From IMG/VR virus record IMGVR_UViG_3300037063_000214: a stretch of 64,000 bases of DNA; one strand, 5' to 3'. Shown here piece by piece: positions 3,723 through 63,444 of this stretch. This DNA comes from a virus. Under the pieces are notes generated by a model. The model was not told where the DNA came from, made no database searches, and worked only from the letters and a program-made list of their open reading frames with translations. The position numbers and the translations under genes were made by a program. Numbering within the stretch: the first letter of the stretch is position 1; each line of letters begins with the position of its first letter.

Positions 3723-6700
3723 ATGGCTATTCCAGTTCCATTTGATCCGAATAACGCAGTTACCGTTACAGGTACAGGTGCAACAGTAGAAACGCAGAAT
3801 TCTACACTCCCGAATCAACTACCTATCTCCAATACATCACCCACAGGAGTTACGGGTACAGTTCCATCCCAAACTCCGGCTACTACTATTAGAAATTTGT
3901 CCCAAAGTTGTCAAGAAAGAGAAATAATCAAGACCGCTCCCGATGTTATTGTGTATTTAGAGGGAACCCCCTATTTGACAAATTACTTTATCGACGATCC
4001 AAAAACCAAAGCTAGTAGTACTTTAGTGAATTTTAATGACCATGTCACAGCATTCAACGCTTCTTATGATACAGATATAATGGTACCCAACGCCACTATC
4101 GGTTTGCAGGTTCCAAATTTTTTAAGGTACTTGTATAAAATGCCAGGGGGTAACAATCTTTTAGACACTATGATGCAGGTACAAGTATATGCTAAAGGAT
4201 ATTACTTAGCATCAAACGGAGATACAGTATATCGCCGGGTTTTCAAGGGAATCACATCTCACATAAGTTATAACGACAATGGAAAAACTCTGGAGATATC
4301 AATTCAATGTCAAGGGTCAATGCACTTACTTGAAAAGATGCAAATTAATGTTCACCCATCTGCAATGGCAGCGGTAACTTTAGGGAGTATGTTAACCTGG
4401 CAGCAAAGTATTTTTGGAGATAATAATTGTTTTACTATCTTAGCAAAAGCTTTCACAACAGGTTTTCAATCGGATGGATTTCAAGCTAGTTCAGTTAGGA
4501 GCACAGATGGAGGTTATTTAACTCCAAGTGATATGTTTTATTCCGCTGTTACTAGAGGTTACATGGCGAAATGGCAAGCCATTTTGATGAATATGATTAA
4601 AGATGTACATATTTATGGGCCAGACAAAGATACTTTAGGGCAATTAGATCAATTACAAGAAGATGAAAATAAAGGGAAGATGGACAAAGATAAGAAGTAT
4701 GCTAGTGTTACATCTCATCCCGTAAAAACTTTTACTGAAACGATTACTGATAACTCCCCTTATTATAAAAAAATACAACAATTTTTACCTTTTAGAACTC
4801 CCGCTAGTTTACAGCTTACTGAGAGTGTTATTGTTAATAGATTGGATATTATTCGTGAAGTAGTTAAGAAGATGGATTTTGAAGCATATCAAGATATTGA
4901 TGGTAAGATTATTATCAAACCACCTTTGTACAATCTGGATGTCACAAACTTAGGTACTCGGTCTAAACAAACTAGTTCCAGCCCTCAAAATTTTGACAGT
5001 TTAGTTCAATCATCTATATCTACTGCACTTAGTGGAGGCTCGACGCCAACAACAACTACCTCTAGTAATTCAGTGTCTGCTAGTAGCATTAATCCACCAT
5101 CTACTAGCAATAGTATGACGAATCCTCTGACTCAAATTTACCCGCAAAATAATCCTTTTGTGGTTTATTTATCAGAAATGTTAACAGAACAGGAAACAGA
5201 AGATCAAAGCGCCATTCGACGCACGCGCACCACTATAACAGGAAATATTATGCCGTGGCAGGGGAACAATTTTCCGGCACCCGCAAAGCCAGTAGCGGAG
5301 TATATTGATGTCACAAAACTAGCAAAGTTTGGTCTTAGGGAAGAACCCATGCAGCAAGTACCCTGGCTTACAATGGGAGACAAATATACTCTATTCGCTC
5401 ACGCTGCCGCAGAAACAGCTAGGACAAATAGAGGGTACCGTACTTACTCGTTTACTATTCCCATGCGCCCTGAATTGAAATTGGGATTCCCCGTATTTAT
5501 ACCCCACAAAGATATGTACGCATACATAAAATCTGTAGCTATAAATTATCAGGTTGGGGGGTCAGCTACAATGTCCATAGTATGTGATACAGTCCGACCT
5601 AGAGTTTTGGTTAAGACAGCTCAAACATCTACTACGGGCAATGTTAGTAATTCACCGGCCACAAAATTTTCCGCTTATACCACAGCCCCTAATTTAATTT
5701 ATATGTGGACAAATAATCCAGTCGCAGCTACGGTGTTTGATCCCGCGCAACCCCAAAGTTACAATCAATATATTCAACAAACCGCTGGGGGTAATCAAAA
5801 TACAAACACTAATATGACAAGTGAGCTAAATGTATCTCAATCTTTACCCGCTGTTACGAAAAACATTGACGGAACAAAATTTGGTCCAACAGATCAACAA
5901 ATAAAAGTGTATTCTTATCTATCCACTACCTTAGCAACAACCGTAGGTAATAAAGCCAGTACTCCTACATCTACTTATGTTATCGTAAATGATACGGGGT
6001 ATTTTAATGGAAGAGCAAAAGACCCAAATTATCCAGGCCGACCAGCGGATGGAGATTATGTAAAGGATATTTGTGGTAATCCAAATTCTGTTATTCCTTA
6101 CACAGATGATAAAGGATATGAATTAATATCCCCATTTCCATGGGGGAGATGGAAAGATCTCAACACAACCATCAGTGAAATAACCGAACAGGGGTGGATT
6201 AATATTCCTCAGACTAACGGGTTAAATGGGCAAGATTTACAAGATGAGACAACTTTTCAAAGTACGGAGGCTTTTTTGTTTGCTGGTTTAGGTACTCCAA
6301 CGGCTACAAGTGACCCATCGACTATGTTATCCACGGCCATGGCTACCCAACAAAGTACAAATACTACACCTACATCGGTTTCACCAGCTTCAGCATCAGC
6401 TCCAAATTCACCGAATACCGGGGGAAATTCGACAAATACCATACAACCAGATGTTACTGTAATAGTATTAGATTACAGTCAACCAGGTTCTAATAGTAAT
6501 TTGTTAAATGCAGCTCAACCAGAAAACGCCTTGGCCGCTAGTTTAGTTAGCGCTAAAAACGCTGGATTGGCCGAACAGCAGCTAGTTAGCGTATTAGTAT
6601 CTGGGACTGTAGCTCCAATCCCAGCGGTGCAAGAACAATTATTAATTGCTCAAAACAGTGCGGCTAATGCACAGCAGTCATTTGCTACACTGACCTTACC

Positions 6701-6828: not shown

Positions 6829-9213
6829 ATGCCGCTACTAAGAAAAAATACGGATTTTTATCCACCTACATCATTTGAAAGAACAAATGAAAGCCTCCAC
6901 CGCGATATTTTCATTGTAGAAGTTCTTACTGTTGACTATGAGCGTAAAGTAATGACAGTAGAAGATGTCAAAGATGGCCTTATTTATGGTAATGTTCAAG
7001 TATTTCCATCCGCGTCCACTTCATCACAAGGATACGATATGGTAATGCCCGAACAAGGTTCTATGGGAATTGCTTGTAATTTTGCTTACGATAAAGGTTT
7101 TCGTCAGGTGATGATAATTAGCTGGATTCATATGGATAGGTATCTTGGGATAGATGCTGTTGGGGTTAGACAAATATCCGGCACCCGAATCCAAGGTTAT
7201 AGCGACCGTCTGAGAGGTGTATATCGAAAGGCGTTCCCAGGGCAAAAAACATCAGCTTATACAGGTGGGGCGTCAGAAAAGGTGGATACCGGCTGGGATA
7301 GACAAGCAGCCGATTATAGCAGAGATAAAACGGATGCGGATAAGCGTCAATGGACTCAGATAGCGGCCCGTAGGGTCTCCTATACCGATGCTGGGGTATC
7401 TTTTGAGGGGTCAGTGAATCGCCCTCTGGCATCAAATTTAATCCCTGTGATTCTCCCAGATGGGACAATGGAATATGTAGCCTACCTGCAACCCGGAGCC
7501 CAACCATCAGATCGATATGTTAGCGGGAAGCAGGATGTAATTCCTTTCGCTGAACACACAGAATTGACGCAGGAATTCTCTCTTGATTATCCCATGCCTT
7601 ATGAAGTATTACAGACCAGTTTGTTTAACACCGTATTAGGTTCTACCGCAGACCCATGGGCACGCACTAAGGTAACCTCTCCCAGCGGTCAAGTAGCTTA
7701 CGATAACGAAACTTACATGATTACCCAGACTTGGGATGATCCGTTTGATGATAGAGCAAAAGCCGTGGGTCCAACACTTAATGAAGGACCTACCCCGCAA
7801 CGTAGAGCTTTTATTGTAGAAAAATCTCAAGGCACCTTGGTTGGATATAATATTTTTGACCAGGCAACTTACGGTCATGTGTTGAAGCCTGTTCTATTCC
7901 CTTATAATTACTGCGGGCGTTTTGGAGCAGATGTGGAATCAGGATATTTGCCAGTTGTGGATTCCGCGGATCATGAAGAAGCTCGTTTAGCAGCATCTTG
8001 TCTAGCCATACGATTCCCTTATGACCAAAACACTACGCGATTGGATGTAACGAAAGAGGGTTTTATCAGCTTGGAAATCGGATCGACTTTACCTAAAGAA
8101 AATATTCTAAAGCATTGGCAAGGTGGATATGAACACCCCCACGGTGCTGGCCGTTCTTTAGAAGCGCACCTTGTAGGTAGTGCAAAAATTGTTATCGGTA
8201 AAAATAGAGATGAAGAAGATGCTTTGGACGCTCAAATTTTAGGGCAATCTGTAATTCGTCTAGGGGCGGATGATGCATCTCTTCCGAATTCTCGTCGCAC
8301 AGTACAGACTCAAATTCGAAGTAATGGAGATATTCCGGCGACTCGTACTTTACAGTTCTGGACCGAACACAAATTGAATCCAGGGGACGCCGGTAGCCTA
8401 ACTATGAAAACGGGTGCTGAGAATATATCTCTTCGCGCTGCTACGGATGGAGGCGCTGTACTACGCTTGGGGGCTAAGAATCCAGCATCTTTACGCCGTC
8501 ATTTGATTAATGGGTACTCCGATGGTCCTGGTAAAACCGCTTATCCAGAATCTCCTACAGGACCTTATGGCGGAGGTACTGATTGTGGGGAACCTTTCCA
8601 TGGTCGCATAGACTCCAAGAGCCCGGGTCGTCCCACCTACGGAGCCGGGGATAATATTTATCGGTTCCATGATCTTACTCAAGTAGGAACACCCCCGCCA
8701 AATTCGGGGACAACTGACTTTAATCCTTTTCCCCCATACGCATGGAGTGGTTCTCCAGTAATCAACATGGATGCTCATGGGCAATCTCTTGATTTGCATG
8801 CTGTGCGAGATGCTTTATTGCGTTTGGGTTCAAATCCAGATTCTGGGCAATCGTTGCTTTTAGACTTAGCCGGTGGAATAGTTGCAGCACTGGGAAAAGA
8901 CAATCAGGGGCGTTCTATTACCGCGGCCTTAGACGGCGGGATTGAGATTACTATACTTCCTAACGCACAAGGAAAAGCCATGCGATTAAATATTATTGGT
9001 GATGTTGACATCTCTCATAAAGGGCACCTTCAGTACAACTGTGGGGGAGATATAATTACAGAATGTACAACAGCGAGAAGTATTGTAAAAACAGATCGTA
9101 TTGAAACACAGATGAATGCGATTAGTGCTTCTCTTGTTAGCGATAAGAGAGAAGCTCCAAATTCTGTGGATAATAATGGACTTTATGTCAGCAATGAAAA
9201 TCAAATTTCTTGA
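6829..9213 (+). CDS. Hypothetical structural protein (794 aa), possibly a baseplate or tail-tip component
   Basis: Long ORF starting immediately after the upstream stop; no recognisable catalytic motif. Confidence 0.6.
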   Translation: MPLLRKNTDFYPPTSFERTNESLHRDIFIVEVLTVDYERKVMTVEDVKDGLIYGNVQVFPSASTSSQGYDMVMPEQGSMGIACNFAYDKGFRQVMIISWIHMDRYLGIDAVGVRQISGTRIQGYSDRLRGVYRKAFPGQKTSAYTGGASEKVDTGWDRQAADYSRDKTDADKRQWTQIAARRVSYTDAGVSFEGSVNRPLASNLIPVILPDGTMEYVAYLQPGAQPSDRYVSGKQDVIPFAEHTELTQEFSLDYPMPYEVLQTSLFNTVLGSTADPWARTKVTSPSGQVAYDNETYMITQTWDDPFDDRAKAVGPTLNEGPTPQRRAFIVEKSQGTLVGYNIFDQATYGHVLKPVLFPYNYCGRFGADVESGYLPVVDSADHEEARLAASCLAIRFPYDQNTTRLDVTKEGFISLEIGSTLPKENILKHWQGGYEHPHGAGRSLEAHLVGSAKIVIGKNRDEEDALDAQILGQSVIRLGADDASLPNSRRTVQTQIRSNGDIPATRTLQFWTEHKLNPGDAGSLTMKTGAENISLRAATDGGAVLRLGAKNPASLRRHLINGYSDGPGKTAYPESPTGPYGGGTDCGEPFHGRIDSKSPGRPTYGAGDNIYRFHDLTQVGTPPPNSGTTDFNPFPPYAWSGSPVINMDAHGQSLDLHAVRDALLRLGSNPDSGQSLLLDLAGGIVAALGKDNQGRSITAALDGGIEITILPNAQGKAMRLNIIGDVDISHKGHLQYNCGGDIITECTTARSIVKTDRIETQMNAISASLVSDKREAPNSVDNNGLYVSNENQIS

Positions 9214-9300
9214 AAAGATAAGGGGATATAGTGGAGACAGCCTACTCTTTCAAGACGAGCAGAATACGGCGTGCTTAAACGTAAGGCAGAGAGAATATAA

Positions 9301-57369: not shown

Positions 57370-59541
57370 ATGAATCGTATTGTATCCGCACTTATCGTTT
57401 TTGTATTATTTGTAACCCCAGTTTTTGCTAGAAACCATCCATTGAAACGTCATGTCCGCAAAGAAGTTACATCGGCTGCTCGTGTAAGTGACCTTCCAGC
57501 AGATCGTCAATTGATTATGGCTATTATGTTGCCTCTCCGCAATGAGTCAACTTTAACAGCTCTTTTACAGCAAATAAACACCCCATCAAGTCCTTTGTAT
57601 CACCAGTTTCTAACGCCTGAACAATTCACTAAAGAGTTTGGTCCAACGGAACAGGATTATCAAGCGGTAGTTCGTTTTGCTATAAAGCAGGGGTTTTTTG
57701 TGTACAAACAACACACTAATCGTATACTTGTTGATATCACTGGATCTACAGCACAAATAGAAAAAGCTTTCAATGTAAAAATGGGGTTATATAAACATCC
57801 TATTGAAAATCGTAATTTTTATTCTCCAGATGTAGAACCGTCTCTTGATTTAGATGTTCCAATCTATCGTATTGCTGGTTTAAATAATTTCTCTATTCCT
57901 AGTCGTAGATTGATTAAGCGTTCATTTAACGCTCGTCTATCAGATGTAGTTGCAGGGTCTGGTCCTAGCGGTTCTTTCCGTCCATCGGATATGCGAGCGG
58001 CATATTATGGATCAGGTACTTTGACAGGTACCGGTCAATCTGTGGGCATGTTAGAGTTCGATGGTTATAATATCGCAGATGTAAATTCTGATATGGGGGG
58101 TGTTGCTTATACCGTACCTGTACAGAATATTCTTGTCGATGGTGCAAGTGCTGGCTCTGATGGAGATGATGGAGAGCAAGCTTTGGATATCGCTCAAGCT
58201 ATCGGTATGGCACCGGGGTTAACTTCTGTACGGGTTTACATCGCCCCAGGCAATTCCGCCATAGGTACCGGAGATGTGGATATTTTTAATCAAATGGCTG
58301 TGGACAACATTTCCAAACAATTGAGTTGTTCTTGGGGTTGGAGTCCCGATGATATAACTGATGATGACCCTATTTTTAAAGAATTCGCAGCACAGGGTCA
58401 AAATCTTTTTGTAGCCTCTGGAGATGCTGGTAAGTATACGGGAAATAACAATAATGATAGCAGCTACCCAGCTGAAGATCCGTATGTTGTAGCTGTTGGC
58501 GGTACGGATTTAACTACAAATGGTGCTGGAGGAACTTGGCAAACAGAAACGGCTTGGTCGGATAGCAGTGGTGGTCCAGCGGACGATGGTTTTGCAATTC
58601 CTAGCTGGCAAGTAGGAGTAGCAAATTCTAATGGTGCTTCTACAGCAATTCGTAATGTTCCGGATGTTGCCGCAGAAGCAAATTTCGATAATATTATGTG
58701 TGATGATGGCGCTTGCACTTACAATCAAACTGGGGGTACTAGCTATGCTGCGCCTCGCTGGGCTGGCTATATGGCTTTAGTGAATCAGCAGAACATGACT
58801 AATCATGGTACTACTTTAGGTTTCTTGAATCCCTTGATTTATCCCATTGGTTTCGGTGCTGCGTACACTATTAATTTTCACGATATTACAAGCGGGAGCA
58901 ATGGGCATCCGGCTACTGTTGGGTATGATATGGTAACTGGTTGGGGTAGTCCTAATGGGGCAACTTTAATCAATACTTTAACAGGCGCTCCAACCGGAGT
59001 AGGATTACAAGCAACTTATAATCCAACCTATAAAACTCCAGCATGTACAGTTGTCAGTAATTCCTGTGATTCAGGCCCAACTCTACTTTTAGGTCGCGGA
59101 AATGTGCATAACGGTGCGGAACAAAATCACCCCAATACAATCAATAACTCTTGCGGGGATGGGAACTCGGGGGTATTTCACTCCTATGAATCAAATGATC
59201 GCCTTGCGGTAGCTTCTGTATCTGGTGGGTTGTTAACCGCGGGTACAAAAGCAACGATAACAGCCACAGTATGGGCTCGAAAGGATTTTGAAAGCGATTC
59301 TCTTGACCTTTACGTTACTTCAAATGTTGTAAATCCTACTTGGGTTTATATCGCTACGCTTAAGCCCACTAAAGATGCACAAAATATTTTATCGACTACA
59401 TTTACTCTCCCAGCCTCCGGCAATTTACAAGCTGTACGAGCACATTTTCGATATGAGGGACATGTGAATCCATCGGCTTGTGGTAATTCTTCTGGTGGAG
59501 AGTATGATGATTATGATGATTTAGTTTTTGCGGTGAATTAA
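57370..59541 (+). CDS. Secreted S53-family serine peptidase (sedolisin/kumamolisin-like) with an N-terminal pro-kumamolisin activation domain
   Basis: AGGAGG SD. Signal peptide MNRIVSALIVFVLFVTPVFA. Pro-domain QFLTPEQFTKEFGPTEQDYQAVVRFA. Catalytic Ser motif GGTSYAAPRWAG; Asp/Glu-rich catalytic region. Confidence 0.8.
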   Translation: MNRIVSALIVFVLFVTPVFARNHPLKRHVRKEVTSAARVSDLPADRQLIMAIMLPLRNESTLTALLQQINTPSSPLYHQFLTPEQFTKEFGPTEQDYQAVVRFAIKQGFFVYKQHTNRILVDITGSTAQIEKAFNVKMGLYKHPIENRNFYSPDVEPSLDLDVPIYRIAGLNNFSIPSRRLIKRSFNARLSDVVAGSGPSGSFRPSDMRAAYYGSGTLTGTGQSVGMLEFDGYNIADVNSDMGGVAYTVPVQNILVDGASAGSDGDDGEQALDIAQAIGMAPGLTSVRVYIAPGNSAIGTGDVDIFNQMAVDNISKQLSCSWGWSPDDITDDDPIFKEFAAQGQNLFVASGDAGKYTGNNNNDSSYPAEDPYVVAVGGTDLTTNGAGGTWQTETAWSDSSGGPADDGFAIPSWQVGVANSNGASTAIRNVPDVAAEANFDNIMCDDGACTYNQTGGTSYAAPRWAGYMALVNQQNMTNHGTTLGFLNPLIYPIGFGAAYTINFHDITSGSNGHPATVGYDMVTGWGSPNGATLINTLTGAPTGVGLQATYNPTYKTPACTVVSNSCDSGPTLLLGRGNVHNGAEQNHPNTINNSCGDGNSGVFHSYESNDRLAVASVSGGLLTAGTKATITATVWARKDFESDSLDLYVTSNVVNPTWVYIATLKPTKDAQNILSTTFTLPASGNLQAVRAHFRYEGHVNPSACGNSSGGEYDDYDDLVFAVN

Positions 59542-59548
59542 CCAGAGC

Positions 59549-59624
59549 GCTCTTGTAGCTCAGTGTAGAGCATTCCGTGTGCAACGGAAGGGTCGGATGG
59601 TTCAACTCCATCCCAAGGGCTCCA
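59549..59624 (+). tRNA. tRNA-like element, possibly a degenerate tRNA (anticodon loop tgTGCaa implies UGC/Ala) with an encoded 3' CCA
   Basis: Acceptor gctcttg/caagggc (one U-G) then t, CCA. D-arm gctc-agtgta-gagc (6-nt loop). Anticodon stem ttccg/cggaa. T-arm ggatgg-ttcaact-ccatcc. Non-canonical G at position 33 and a 6-bp T-stem. Confidence 0.5.
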
Positions 59625-59629
59625 AATTT

Positions 59630-60595
59630 ATGAAGGAAATCTATGAACGAGTAGCGGCAGATTTCGCAGAGAAAATTGACCATCTGTTTGAATCTGAAAA
59701 ATCCCTAGAGACCACATTTAAACAGTATTACGAAGGTTTGCCCTTTGATCGTACAGAGCACTGGAGCGGTATCATCCACAAAATTTTATCTGATTCCTGG
59801 AAAGACAAAGGACCTGAAGTAAAGTGTGAACCTACAGGAATGGATAAACTTCAAATTATGCGTTATCTTCATCATCTTCTGGATTACAATATTTTTACTC
59901 AAGTACTTCTCAATCTCCAAGGATACACCGGTATGTTTTATATGACCGGAGATGCCCAAGCTGAGATTGAGCGAATGAAATCAGCATGGTCTTCAGCATA
60001 CAAACTTGACCCCTTTGCTCCAAAGGCTAAAATGCTGAAACAGGCTGAAGCGATTACCGAAGAACAAAAACAATACAATCAAACTATCAGTGCTCTTCGT
60101 GCCCTGCGTATCATCACTCAGTTTACTCCACAAATTAGCTTCAGAGTGAGCCCAAAAGGGTCTACACCGGCCTTCGCAGACAGTCGTAATATCAGTATGA
60201 TAGGGTTGGGGGGAGATCGCTTTCTTAAAACGATATCATCCCTCAAACCGTATTACATTACTTGGAATCAAGTTCCTCAAATAGCCCAATTTATCGGGAT
60301 TACCACACCACCAGGGCACGATGTTCCTGTCTCTACATTTAAAGCAGACGGCATATCATATGAATTCCATTCAAAATCTGGTGGAGAAGTGATTCAAGAT
60401 GTTCTTTTTGCTAGAAAAATCATGTATGAAATCTTCCGAGATGTTAATATAACCAGAGAGACTTGTATCATGATTCCTCGTATGAATTCTATTTTGATTG
60501 TTGGGGATGTAGTATTTGAGAATCTACAAAAGGCATACGAGCGCCTGTACAAGATGTATCCGGTCATTAGTTTTGTGGATGGGATTCGTGCCTAA
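59630..60595 (+). CDS. Hypothetical protein (321 aa)
   Basis: First ATG downstream of the tRNA-like element. Track ORF 59579 would start inside the tRNA. Confidence 0.5.
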   Translation: MKEIYERVAADFAEKIDHLFESEKSLETTFKQYYEGLPFDRTEHWSGIIHKILSDSWKDKGPEVKCEPTGMDKLQIMRYLHHLLDYNIFTQVLLNLQGYTGMFYMTGDAQAEIERMKSAWSSAYKLDPFAPKAKMLKQAEAITEEQKQYNQTISALRALRIITQFTPQISFRVSPKGSTPAFADSRNISMIGLGGDRFLKTISSLKPYYITWNQVPQIAQFIGITTPPGHDVPVSTFKADGISYEFHSKSGGEVIQDVLFARKIMYEIFRDVNITRETCIMIPRMNSILIVGDVVFENLQKAYERLYKMYPVISFVDGIRA

Positions 60596-60770
60596 AAAAT
60601 GTAGTATTCATCTCTGTGAAAATCAAGCAACTAACTCTCTTCTGTTTAGTGATGATTCCATATCATTTTATTGCGCAAAACATTATGATTCCATAACCAA
60701 GCGTTGGCTGAAACAGGCAGCGGAAGACTTAGATTGTTTAAAAGCGGTGAAAAGGAATAAGCTCAGATGA
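60579..60770 (+). CDS. Small Cys/His protein, paralog 1 of the ...FYCAKHYD... family
   Basis: MGFVPKKCSIHLCENQ...SFYCAKHYDSI. The start is uncertain; it overlaps the upstream gene. Confidence 0.45.
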   Translation: MGFVPKKCSIHLCENQATNSLLFSDDSISFYCAKHYDSITKRWLKQAAEDLDCLKAVKRNKLR

Positions 60771-60964
60771 AAAAATGTGATTATACTCGCTGTGAAAATT
60801 CAACTGTCGCACATATCGATTATTATAATAGTAATTTAAAATTTTACTGTGCGAAGCATTATGATTTAATAGTTAAACATTTGGCCAAATATGCCCAAGA
60901 CCCCGATGAATGGGGGATTCAAAGGTGGTTTACAGAAATTCTAAGAAGGAACGGGATCAGATGA
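60767..60964 (+). CDS. Small Cys/His protein, paralog 2 (MKKCDYTRCEN...KFYCAKHYD...RRNGIR)
   Basis: ATGA overlap with paralog 1; strong aa and nt similarity to paralog 3. Confidence 0.55.
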   Translation: MKKCDYTRCENSTVAHIDYYNSNLKFYCAKHYDLIVKHLAKYAQDPDEWGIQRWFTEILRRNGIR

Positions 60965-61173
60965 AAAAATGTGACTATAATCGTTGTGAAAATTCAGCTG
61001 TCGCACATATCGATTACTGCGGGCAAACAGCTCAGCCAATCTGTGGGCCCGCAGTAAAGTTTTACTGTGCGAAGCATTATGATTTTATAGTTAAATATTT
61101 AGCTAAAGATGCCCTAGACCCCGATGATGATGGGTGGTCTACAAAAATTCTAAGAAGGAACGGGGTCAGATGA
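60961..61173 (+). CDS. Small Cys/His protein, paralog 3 (MKKCDYNRCEN...KFYCAKHYD...RRNGVR)
   Basis: ATGA overlap. The same junction sequence aagaaggaacggg(a/g)tcagATGAaaaa recurs. Confidence 0.55.
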   Translation: MKKCDYNRCENSAVAHIDYCGQTAQPICGPAVKFYCAKHYDFIVKYLAKDALDPDDDGWSTKILRRNGVR

Positions 61174-62153
61174 AAAAGATATTTCTGTTGGACACAATGA
61201 GTTTTATCTACCGCGCTTATCATGCTGCGGCACATCAGTCCATTATGATGAGTACTAAAGCAGGATTTCCTACCGGGGCGAGTTATATTTTTTGTAATAT
61301 GCTTCGTAAATTACAAAAAGATTTTAATCCCGAGTACCTCATCGCCATATGCGACACCCCGGGCGAAACCTTTAGAGATAAACTATCCCCTGATTATAAG
61401 GCCAATCGCAAGGGCGAAACTCCTTACGACTTGGTACGCCAACTTCCTCACATTTTTAAGGCGATTGAAGCTTACGGCATCTCTAAAATGGAGTTGGCTG
61501 GATATGAAGCAGATGATATTATTGGTACCTTGGCGCGTAAAATTTACGCCGAAGATCCTGAAAATCAAGTATACATTGTGACCGGTGATAAGGATATGTT
61601 TCAGTTGGTAAACGACAGAACATTTACCATCAATCCTATGAAAGACTTGGTGTGTGATGTAGAAAAAGTGACTGAGATTGTGGGTGTGCCCCCAGAACAA
61701 GTTGTAGATGTCATGGCTTTACGTGGAGACACCACAGACAATGTGCCCGGAGCCCCGGGAATCGGCAAGAAGGGGTCTGTAGACATCATCAAGCAGTTTG
61801 GTTCTTTAGAACAAGCTTTTGTACGAGCGGATGAATTGAAGCGTAAATCATATAAAGAGTCCTTAAAAAATAATCAAGCTCAAATCCTACTCAGCAAACA
61901 ATTAGTGACCATAGAAATCAATGCTCCCGTAGAACTTAGTATTTCGTCTATGAAAATAGGGGAAACTAATACTGAAGCTCTGAGTTCTTTATACAAAGAA
62001 CTAGAGTTCGCCACTCTTTTGAAAAGAGAAGGTTTAGGAGCGCTGCCTGAAATTGTAGATGACTTCGCAGAAATCGTACCTCCTGATGACATTCTCACCC
62101 AAACCACGATGACCAAAGAAGATGCGGATGATTTGATCGACAGTATTTCATAG
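61170..62153 (+). CDS. 5'-3' exonuclease / flap endonuclease (Pol I N-terminal-domain-like, FEN)
   Basis: FLLDTMSFIYRAYHA; GYEADDIIGTLA; IVTGDKDMFQLV; the H3TH region TDNVPGAPGIGKKGSVDII. Confidence 0.8.
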   Translation: MKKIFLLDTMSFIYRAYHAAAHQSIMMSTKAGFPTGASYIFCNMLRKLQKDFNPEYLIAICDTPGETFRDKLSPDYKANRKGETPYDLVRQLPHIFKAIEAYGISKMELAGYEADDIIGTLARKIYAEDPENQVYIVTGDKDMFQLVNDRTFTINPMKDLVCDVEKVTEIVGVPPEQVVDVMALRGDTTDNVPGAPGIGKKGSVDIIKQFGSLEQAFVRADELKRKSYKESLKNNQAQILLSKQLVTIEINAPVELSISSMKIGETNTEALSSLYKELEFATLLKREGLGALPEIVDDFAEIVPPDDILTQTTMTKEDADDLIDSIS

Positions 62154-62155
62154 AT

Positions 62156-62587
62156 ATGGCTAAATATAATTGTAGCTGCGGTGAACCAGCGTTTGCTGTT
62201 ATATGCGGGGAAGAAGGTTTTCCTGTTTGTTTTGATCATTTTTTCAAACAGATAAAAGAAGATGTTGAATATTATTTAAAACAGGCAGTTGGAAATACTG
62301 AAAGGTTTCAAATCCATTGTTTTTTCAAGAATGATGAACCTATTTATCTTCCTTTTGCGAGCTATCTTCAACTAGGAGAGAACCAACACTGCTGGGATAA
62401 ATCTGATAACTGGAAAGATATTACTCCCTGTAAACATGAGAAATTTCATATAGCAAAAGCATTCGAGAATGACCCGGTTTATAGCGATGATGACCAGCTT
62501 AAATATTGTGATTCCTGTGGAGTAAATAAACTACAGGAAAGAAAAGCCCGCGGCAGAATTTTTAATACTGGAAAAAGAAATGATTGA
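62156..62587 (+). CDS. Cys/His-rich small protein (143 aa), distantly related to the FYCAKHYD paralogs
   Basis: NCSCGEPAFAVICGEEGFPVCFDHFFK parallels C-x4/5-C...C-x2-H of the paralogs. Confidence 0.5.
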   Translation: MAKYNCSCGEPAFAVICGEEGFPVCFDHFFKQIKEDVEYYLKQAVGNTERFQIHCFFKNDEPIYLPFASYLQLGENQHCWDKSDNWKDITPCKHEKFHIAKAFENDPVYSDDDQLKYCDSCGVNKLQERKARGRIFNTGKRND

Positions 62588-62790: not shown

Positions 62791-63444
62791 ATGAATAAAT
62801 CAATTGTTACCGTTCTTTCACTAGCACTTTTTATGACTCCCCTTATTGCACAAGAAGAAAAAGGTGGACATGAATCGGCTAGACCCCAAGCAGCGCAACA
62901 TGAAGGCGCAGCAAAACAAACAGCACCAAAACAAGAAAAAGTTCCAAAGGCTGAAAAAGTAGCCAAAGTTCCGAAGGCTGAGAAACAAGAAAAGGCCCCA
63001 AAGACAGAGAAAGTAGCTAAGACTCAGGCTCCAAAAGCTGAGAAGCAAGCAAGATCTGAAAAGCCTACAGCTGTAAAGGCCCAAAAGCAGGAAAAGGCCC
63101 CTAAACAGGAAAAAGTAAAGGCTGAAAAACCAGAGACTCAAAAAGAGGATCGTACCAATGAGATAGCACATCAAAATTGGAACGGTAAGAATTTTAAGCC
63201 AGAATACTTTAAATCTAACTTTGGTGAATCGCACGGTTTTGGTATTCGCAGTGCTCAATGGCAGGGAAATCAATTCCATTCAGGCTCACGCTTTATGTTC
63301 GGCGGTGCGTGGTTTGTACTAGGAGAGGATCTACCTCTAGATTGGTACAGCTGCAACACCTATATCAATGAATATGAAGGCGGATATGCTCTTTACTGCC
63401 CTGAATATCCAGGCGTTCCATTTGGAATCACTGTAGTATTCTAA
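62791..63444 (+). CDS. Secreted/anchored protein with a Lys/Pro/Glu-rich (PKxEK)n linker and a C-terminal globular domain ending in F (TolA/TonB-like architecture)
   Basis: GAGGAAA SD. N-terminal hydrophobic MNKSIVTVLSLALFMTPLIA. Repeats KVPKAEKVAKVPKAEKQEKAPKTEKVAK... C-terminal 100-aa domain ...GVPFGITVVF. Confidence 0.6.
   Translation: MNKSIVTVLSLALFMTPLIAQEEKGGHESARPQAAQHEGAAKQTAPKQEKVPKAEKVAKVPKAEKQEKAPKTEKVAKTQAPKAEKQARSEKPTAVKAQKQEKAPKQEKVKAEKPETQKEDRTNEIAHQNWNGKNFKPEYFKSNFGESHGFGIRSAQWQGNQFHSGSRFMFGGAWFVLGEDLPLDWYSCNTYINEYEGGYALYCPEYPGVPFGITVVF

Follow-up and report, generated by a model that had tools for sequence, protein, structure and literature searches.

A 64,000-nucleotide (nt) stretch of the IMG/VR virus record IMGVR_UViG_3300037063_000214 (hereafter the window, to whose whole length the coordinates refer) contains three consecutive small genes, here called A, B and C, between a conserved gene for a 321-amino-acid (aa) protein and the gene for a FEN-type 5'-3' exonuclease, which raises the question of what these small proteins are, how they came to stand in a row, and whether they act on their large neighbors or on something else. 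The reading that we favor, at about even confidence, is that A, B and C belong to an undescribed zinc-finger family, expressed from a coupled operon and exchanged as recombining units, whose members would be protein-binding modules for variable, probably host, targets.

The finger family and its predicted fold

An earlier note on this DNA had described three consecutive open reading frames (ORFs) sharing a Cys/His motif, and all the features that it listed for them are present in the sequence (Table 1). The products of B and C share 74% protein identity and those of A and B 37%. Gene A has an alternative start at ATG 60579, which would give a protein of 63 aa; the GTG at 60588, conserved among relatives, is the more likely start.

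Used alone as queries in a word-indexed protein search, A, B and C returned matches only from their own phage population. Homologs in the equivalent slot were found by reading the loci around related FEN genes (L005 and L006), and a profile including them recovered 38 proteins, all of 58-85 aa, none with a Pfam domain or an informative name (one is called 'predicted RNA-binding protein' by JGI). A full scan of 1.84 billion representatives with a hidden Markov model (HMM) gave three further true members and one repetitive false positive, P0007, which was rejected. No family was matched at threshold in Pfam, PHROGs or NCBIfam by A, B, C or gene D, a Cys-rich ORF behind FEN, and scans of IMG/VR found the motif WYCAEHYD on only two contigs.

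In an alignment of 42 sequences, C4, C9, C28, Y32 and D33 are invariant and Y27, A29 and H31 nearly so, giving the signature C-x(1-16)-C-x-x-P-A-V-x-x-I ... [FWY]-Y-C-A-[EK]-H-Y-D. Two members, P0006 and P0030 (FYCAVCYD and WVCAECYD), have Cys in place of H31, the behavior expected of a metal ligand. The conservation of the Cys/His columns in about 40 homologs, together with a ratio of nonsynonymous (dN) to synonymous (dS) substitutions, omega, below one, disposes of the concern, raised earlier, that the frames might be non-coding. By this conservation, all three small genes are real and belong to an undescribed multigene phage family with about 40 homologs in a jumbo-phage clade.

The gene B product, modeled with AlphaFold2 on the family alignment, gave a predicted local distance difference test score (pLDDT) of 89.8, with a beta-hairpin at residues 15-18/24-27 and helices at 29-44 and 51-61. 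The best profile match among PDB sequences was the N1 domain of ClpG/ClpK (8p66_B, E=0.0093, 19.3 bits), in an alignment spanning the whole finger. The zinc ligands of ClpG N1, determined by nuclear magnetic resonance, are C6, C9, C31 and H34, and the domain binds protein aggregates via a hydrophobic beta-strand (Katikaridis et al. 2023, PMC10641755). Family columns C4, C9, C28 and H31 align with these four ligands, and from this alignment to solved ligands and from the His/Cys swap we infer that the family is zinc-binding, of the C2-C-H type, in line with the C2HC-like module that had been proposed. Each protein would hold a single zinc site, C-x(1-16)-C ... C-x2-(H/C), and the predicted order of elements is an N-terminal zinc knuckle and beta-hairpin, a helix starting at the [FWY]-Y-C-A-[EK]-H-Y-D motif, and a second helix.

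By these sequence features the family was placed among single-site C3H knuckle-plus-helix zinc fingers, with ClpG N1 (PDB 8P66) as the nearest known domain, and it is not filed in any curated family. The two have in common a size of about 50 aa, one C...C...C-x2-H zinc site (predicted for the family), the residues C-G-x-P-A-x-x-x-[VI] after the second Cys, and a C-x2-H-Y that opens the helix. ClpG N1 is the N-terminal domain of an AAA+ Hsp100 disaggregase, whereas the family members all stand alone and have a second helix; the first Cys pair is C-x2-C in ClpG N1 and ranges from C-x1 to C-x16 in the family. DUF7455 and DUF3499, which are small Cys/His proteins of actinobacteria and actinophages with no known function, have the same C...C...C-x2-H layout and size as the family, but their hosts differ and most family members match neither. 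DUF7455 was weakly matched by two of the 42 members (best E=4.4e-4), the window proteins not being among them, and DUF7455 phage proteins appeared among the Foldseek matches in BFVD; DUF3499 was matched only by the gene C product (15.3 bits, E=0.032), below the 25-bit gathering threshold. The N-terminal domain of ClpX is a treble-clef C4 finger that acts as a dimeric protein-binding module and consists of a knuckle, a hairpin and a ligand pair at the helix start. Its YICDECV is reminiscent of the family's FYCAKHY, both ligand pairs standing at the start of a helix, but its ligands are C4 and those of the family C3H, and at E up to 1 none of the 42 members gave a Pfam match to zf-C4_ClpX (PF06689) or THAP (C2CH).

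Junctions, turnover and divergence of the array

Genes A, B and C are chained by ATGA overlaps, in which the stop TGA overlaps the next ATG, and the junctions A/B, B/C and C/FEN all read AGATGAAAAA with AAGGAA upstream, in the pattern AAGGAA(N7-8)AGATGAAAAA. By its layout, this junction repeat is the Shine-Dalgarno sequence and overlapping stop/start of a translationally coupled operon. Stop and start overlap by 1-17 nt at every junction, and the repeat is dual-coded, across lineages, as a C-terminal ...[RK]RN[GK][ILV]R, which in the window takes the form ...RNG(I/V)R. The start of the first finger gene is, in all lineages, a GTG within the last codons of the 321-aa gene (GTGCCTAA, GTGCGTAA, GTGCGTAG or GTGTCTAG); in the window the GTG of gene A overlaps the upstream stop as GTGCCTAA, an overlap kept in L005, L006, L009 and L014, and in these same four relatives the last small gene overlaps the FEN start. 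The junction between types 2 and 3 of L014 reads AGCGGCGTGAGATGAAG and shares ...G-V-R-stop and AGATGA with the window. To judge from the overlaps and the positions of the Shine-Dalgarno sequences, the 321-aa gene, the finger genes and FEN would be expressed, in this order, as one translationally coupled operon, the Shine-Dalgarno sequence of each next gene being encoded inside the C-terminal codons of the preceding one, and the finger proteins would be made together with the phage DNA-metabolism proteins.

The earlier observation that the last copy of the junction repeat forms the start of FEN was borne out, and this state is derived. The FEN of the sister phage (L009) starts MSAKKIF and overlaps the third small gene by 11 nt, that of other relatives starts MARIF or MPKRIF, and MKKIF is found only in the window, where the finger-gene junction stands before it in a perfect copy. 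As the start of FEN differs in L009, L005, L006 and L014, the C/FEN junction of the window is the derived form, most simply explained by a recombination that set a B-like unit against FEN at an A-rich microhomology. A repeat search also detected two 71-nt copies, 89% identical, at 60752-60822 and 60946-61016 (the 5' parts of B and C), and DNA alignment agreed with the repeat-search results for the array. The palindromic insertion of gene C is predicted to fold into an RNA hairpin of dG -25.1 kcal/mol (z=-4.9) and adds two Cys in the hairpin loop of the protein; from its sequence, it might act in attenuation or RNA processing ahead of FEN, or be just the scar of a templated insertion. The hairpin is followed by AAAGUUUUAC.

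Copy numbers in relatives were determined by a family-HMM scan of all retrieved loci and from ORF maps. Between the 321-aa gene and FEN, one to three family members were found in five phage lineages: three in the window and the population contigs L001 and L004, three in the sister phage (L008/L009), types 1, 2 and 3 between a 325-aa gene and FEN in L014, two in L005, followed by a different Cys-rich ORF (63 aa, 5817-6008), two in L006, with a 48-aa hydrophobic ORF between them (5671-5817), and one in L016, followed by an unrelated helical ORF. L016 has another true member directly 3' of FEN, and L014 has further members elsewhere in the locus, e.g. at 500-784. At 6990-7211 of L006, a 73-aa Cys-rich ORF stands after FEN. 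Three tandem members with ATGA and GTGA overlaps were also found in a Candidatus Acidiferrum metagenome-assembled genome (Acidobacteriota, SPRUCE peat; L020 6246-6801, minus strand, and also L017 and L018), near a fucose isomerase gene and away from FEN. This contig may be a prophage; it is the only hint at a host for the family, and the hosts of the clade are probably peat Acidobacteriota.

The arrays in the slot of distant relatives and the independent acidobacterial triplet mark the tandem arrangement as old and recurrent, and the members at L014 500-784 and in the Candidatus Acidiferrum triplet show that the family is not strictly tied to FEN. The recent tandem duplication that had been proposed holds for B and C, a young pair with about 90% nt identity, produced by duplication or conversion, but not for the array, since relatives whose FEN is only about 60% identical hold up to three distinct paralogs in the same slot; with one to three copies in related genomes, a simple recent triplication is not what the comparison shows.

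The rapid evolution that had been suggested was confirmed by alignment and dN/dS of the window against L009, in estimates that are rough because each finger gene has about 60 codons. The flank upstream, up to 60623, is 94.5% identical to L009 at the nt level and FEN 94.9%, each with 97% protein identity, dN of about 0.015, dS of 0.17-0.21 and omega of about 0.08. In contrast, the finger genes are 67-77% identical at the nt level or unalignable, and their products share 47% (A and c1 of L009; dN 0.46, dS 0.92, omega 0.49), 56% (B and c2; dN 0.36, dS 0.65, omega 0.55) and 32% (C and c3; dN 0.79, dS 2.3, omega 0.34) of their residues. Within the window, the comparison of B and C gave dN 0.16, dS 0.29 and omega 0.54. 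The values of omega below one mark the finger genes as constrained, and the rise in both dN and dS implies that cassette replacement or long-diverged alleles contribute to the divergence besides relaxed or diversifying selection. One-to-one orthology was rejected, as type-specific HMMs gave A, B and C no clean assignment to the three types of the high-GC relatives, and these sequence comparisons favor turnover or concerted evolution instead. Each unit carries its own junction, so that unequal recombination and gene conversion could change copy number and homogenize copies; such turnover would have produced the young B/C pair and given FEN a finger-gene-type start.

Contigs of other samples reproduced the array and provide views of the same population. 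L001 (ENA WOOD18 contig) is 99.93% identical to the window over 11.5 kb, L004 (Logan contig) 100% and L003 (JGI contig) 99.5%; L002 (JGI contig) has 40 gap openings over 2.7 kb, taken to be sequencing or assembly error, and the same gene order and spacing as the window. The repeat units of 176-218 nt are near short-read length, so that a collapsed or expanded repeat had to be considered, as the earlier note had done. This artefact was rejected as hardly conceivable, since the four contigs (ENA, two JGI and Logan) agree on order and spacing, B and C have indels relative to each other besides a difference of about 10%, and the sister phage likewise has three genes here. Six of the nine single-nucleotide polymorphisms (SNPs) of L003 fall in B and C (binomial P=0.008), and five of these six switch the base to the state of the other paralog, four changing the 5' end of B to C and one changing a codon of C to B, a sequence pattern that points to gene conversion unless it comes from a short-read chimera. 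In L001, an A>T change at 61105 (L001 10145) makes a stop at codon 49 of gene C, ending translation 66 nt before the FEN start.

Genomic setting and gene D

By gene content, the window is part of a large tailed-phage genome, with nearly all genes on the same strand. It encodes a Baseplate_J protein, an SLT lysozyme and very large Ig- and CBM-bearing proteins, as well as a DEAD/ResIII helicase, a RecA/UvsX-like protein, an SbcC-like ATPase and a metallophosphatase. The contigs of relatives that a FEN search of IMG/VR turned up measure 332 kb, 171 kb and 269 kb, which assigns the window to a jumbo-phage clade, and blastn of the region against INPHARED phages gave no match. The FEN product has an N-terminal resolvase-like domain (5_3_exonuc_N; E=7.5e-49, 166 bits, cut-off 34.3) and a C-terminal SAM-fold domain (5_3_exonuc; E=1.7e-28, 99.4 bits, cut-off 40). 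Homologs of the 321-aa gene occupy the same position in L005, L006, L009, L014 and L016, and its product had no match in Pfam, NCBIfam or, with a profile, the PDB. The automatic call of this ORF from 59579 is too early, as it overlaps the tRNA-Ala gene, and ATG 59630 is the probable real start. A scan for promoters and terminators gave nothing exceeding shuffle expectation.

Table 1. Features of the region around the finger genes, in window coordinates.
Feature	Position	Strand	Remarks
tRNA-Ala (anticodon TGC)	59549-59624		Between peptidase gene and 321-aa gene
321-aa gene	59630..60595	+	Conserved; stop codon overlaps GTG start of gene A
Gene A, zinc-finger paralog 1, 60 aa	60588..60770	+	GTG start; family HMM E=2.4e-15
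A/B junction	60748..60775	+	AAGGAA Shine-Dalgarno and AGATGAAAAA stop/start overlap; identical junction in L009
Gene B, zinc-finger paralog 2, 65 aa	60767..60964	+	Family HMM E=7e-19
B/C junction repeat copy	60924..60968	+	45-nt repeat family (repeat search)
Gene C, zinc-finger paralog 3, 70 aa	60961..61173	+	About 90% nt identity to B except loop insertion
Palindromic insertion, gene C only	61014..61057	+	Encodes CGQTAQPICGPA; inverted repeat; predicted stable RNA hairpin
C/FEN junction repeat copy	61133..61177	+	93% identical to B/C copy; provides FEN start codon
FEN / 5'-3' exonuclease gene, 327 aa	61170..62153	+	Pfam PF02739 and PF01367; NCBIfam 5'-3' exonuclease
Gene D, 143-aa Cys-rich ORFan	62156..62587	+	N-terminal CxC...CxxH motif

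Upstream of the tRNA-Ala gene, 57370-59541 encodes a phage-borne 723-aa secreted sedolisin-like (S53) peptidase with a pro-kumamolisin activation domain and a weak C-terminal GEVED-domain match. The peptidase gene is also found in the sister phage (L008/L009); in L005, L006 and L014, the DNA immediately before the 321-aa gene contains neither it nor the tRNA-Ala gene. At 62791-63444, downstream of FEN, lies the gene of a 217-aa protein with a signal-peptide-like N-terminus and Lys/Ala/Pro-rich repeats (AEK..APK), whose L009 homolog (211 aa, 86% nt identity) has a repeat region of different length. Shortly downstream of FEN, arrays of tRNA genes for Tyr and Leu are found in relatives (L005 7215-9957, L006 7412-9607, L009 6648-7539 and L016 6254-7944), and the window stops before any equivalent region. 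L009 also encodes, downstream of its FEN region, a Sequestin-domain protein and a Fic-domain protein (6199-6420 and 8814-9290).

Gene D had been taken for a fourth relative of A, B and C. A Cys-rich ORF does stand after FEN, on a strain-specific insertion: the 469-nt segment 62159-62627 is missing from the sister phage loci L008 and L009, a clean presence/absence difference. The kinship of this ORF to the fingers is, however, weak. The family HMM left gene D unmatched at E up to 10 (hmmsearch --max), and hhalign against the family gave P=0.0018 and a probability of 15%, setting CGEPAFAVI..FPVCFDHF on the finger core and C8, C25 and H28 on ligand columns; its AlphaFold2 model (pLDDT 33) was unusable. 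Within the family, P0030 has a C-x-C knuckle and L016 has a member after FEN, which makes kinship plausible; by these likenesses in sequence, gene D may be a finger of this kind that has diverged. Its sole homolog in 5.8 billion clusters is P0043, an allele that differs only by an in-frame insertion of 10 aa (YGNYVYKSQK). The SNPs of gene D in L001 and L003 are both non-synonymous (I16M and Y40N).

Possible functions of the finger proteins

The strict coupling of the array supports the main rival to a host-directed role, namely that the finger proteins are accessory subunits or adaptors of the phage replication-repair machinery, binding the 321-aa protein and/or FEN in a ratio fixed by coupling, with paralogs that might hetero-oligomerize. 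Without exception, the stop of the 321-aa gene lies within the first finger gene in one GTGxCTAR arrangement and FEN begins inside the last small gene; synteny holds down to about 60% FEN identity. On the other hand, the presumed partners are 97% identical between the sister phages, while the fingers share only 32-56% of their residues; the slot also takes unrelated small genes (the membrane peptide of L006, the Cys-rich ORF of L005 and the helical ORF of L016), copy number varies, and some members stand away from FEN. The contrast in identity, the unrelated slot genes and the members away from FEN are also what favors variable, probably host, targets, and we regard a subunit role as a tentative, minority possibility. 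It is rather unlikely that the fingers bind nucleic acids, as operon autoregulators or as binders of flap or branched DNA alongside FEN. The genes adjoin a nuclease gene, A, B and C have isoelectric points (pI) of 8.3-9.0 and a basic tail, ILRRNG(I/V)R, weak sub-threshold Pfam matches to zf-C3Hc3H ('potential DNA-binding domain') occur in 4/42 members, and one homolog bears the JGI label cited above. Yet most members are acidic or neutral (median pI 6.15, 25/42 net acidic), which argues against a DNA-binding regulator, the basic tail is accounted for by the dual coding of the AAGGAA Shine-Dalgarno sequence and ATGA, no basic surface column is conserved beyond K2 and K3, and no curated DNA-binding family is matched at threshold. 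The mostly acidic family, the origin of the tail in dual coding and the binding of proteins by ClpG N1 together favor protein binding over nucleic-acid binding. That A, B and C are decaying duplicates or neutral filler, generated by slippage at the junction repeat and kept only for the translation-initiation region of FEN, is very unlikely; the nonsense allele of L001, the indels and palindromic insertion of gene C and a finger omega of 0.3-0.55 against 0.08 in the flanks would fit such decay, but omega is still clearly below one, the ligand columns and YD motif are kept without change over deep divergence, the predicted fold is a confident one, and the family is retained in an unrelated genomic context.

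Several observations weigh against a family of diversifying, host-directed modules. An accessory-subunit role would also suit the strictness with which the fingers are syntenic with, and coupled to, the 321-aa gene and FEN, and the A, B and C proteins of the window are the most basic of the family, so that some nucleic-acid role is conceivable for them. The raised dS implies that part of the divergence is recombinational cassette replacement, not selection, and the paralog-matching SNPs, coming from short-read metagenome assemblies, may be repeat-induced chimeras. Finally, the L001 allele shows that at least the C-terminal third of C is dispensable.

The reading of A, B and C as host-directed modules has a counterpart in T7, where the small host-directed genes 5.5, 5.7 and 5.9 lie just upstream of the FEN-type gene 6 exonuclease. 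As in the window, tiny accessory genes there stand right upstream of a 5'-3' exonuclease gene in a DNA-metabolism operon; unlike the window fingers, the T7 proteins are neither zinc fingers nor mutual paralogs, and the two sets have no relation in sequence or fold. By analogy with ClpG N1, the finger proteins would be small zinc-stabilized protein-binding modules, not DNA binders. A more detailed proposal, which we consider unlikely as a whole, is that these ClpG-N1-like modules are diversifying inhibitors or adaptors directed against host nucleases, proteases or defense effectors, in jumbo phages of Acidobacteriota, with the junction as an accordion-like recombination handle and with the coupling to FEN retained.

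As it stands, the array is old and dynamic with one young pair, and the family is uncatalogued and of a known general zinc-finger kind. Should the fingers turn out to be merely accessory proteins, the analysis would still supply a signature motif, a confident fold model and the distribution of the family. If the reading that we favor is true, an uncatalogued family of zinc-finger mini-proteins would be specific to an uncultured jumbo-phage clade, probably of peat Acidobacteriota, and its sequences and copy number would be far quicker to change than the replication genes around it. The array would then be an example of a dual-coded translational-coupling junction that drives tandem gene turnover, and the family would provide a defined place for seeking new host-takeover or anti-defense activities.

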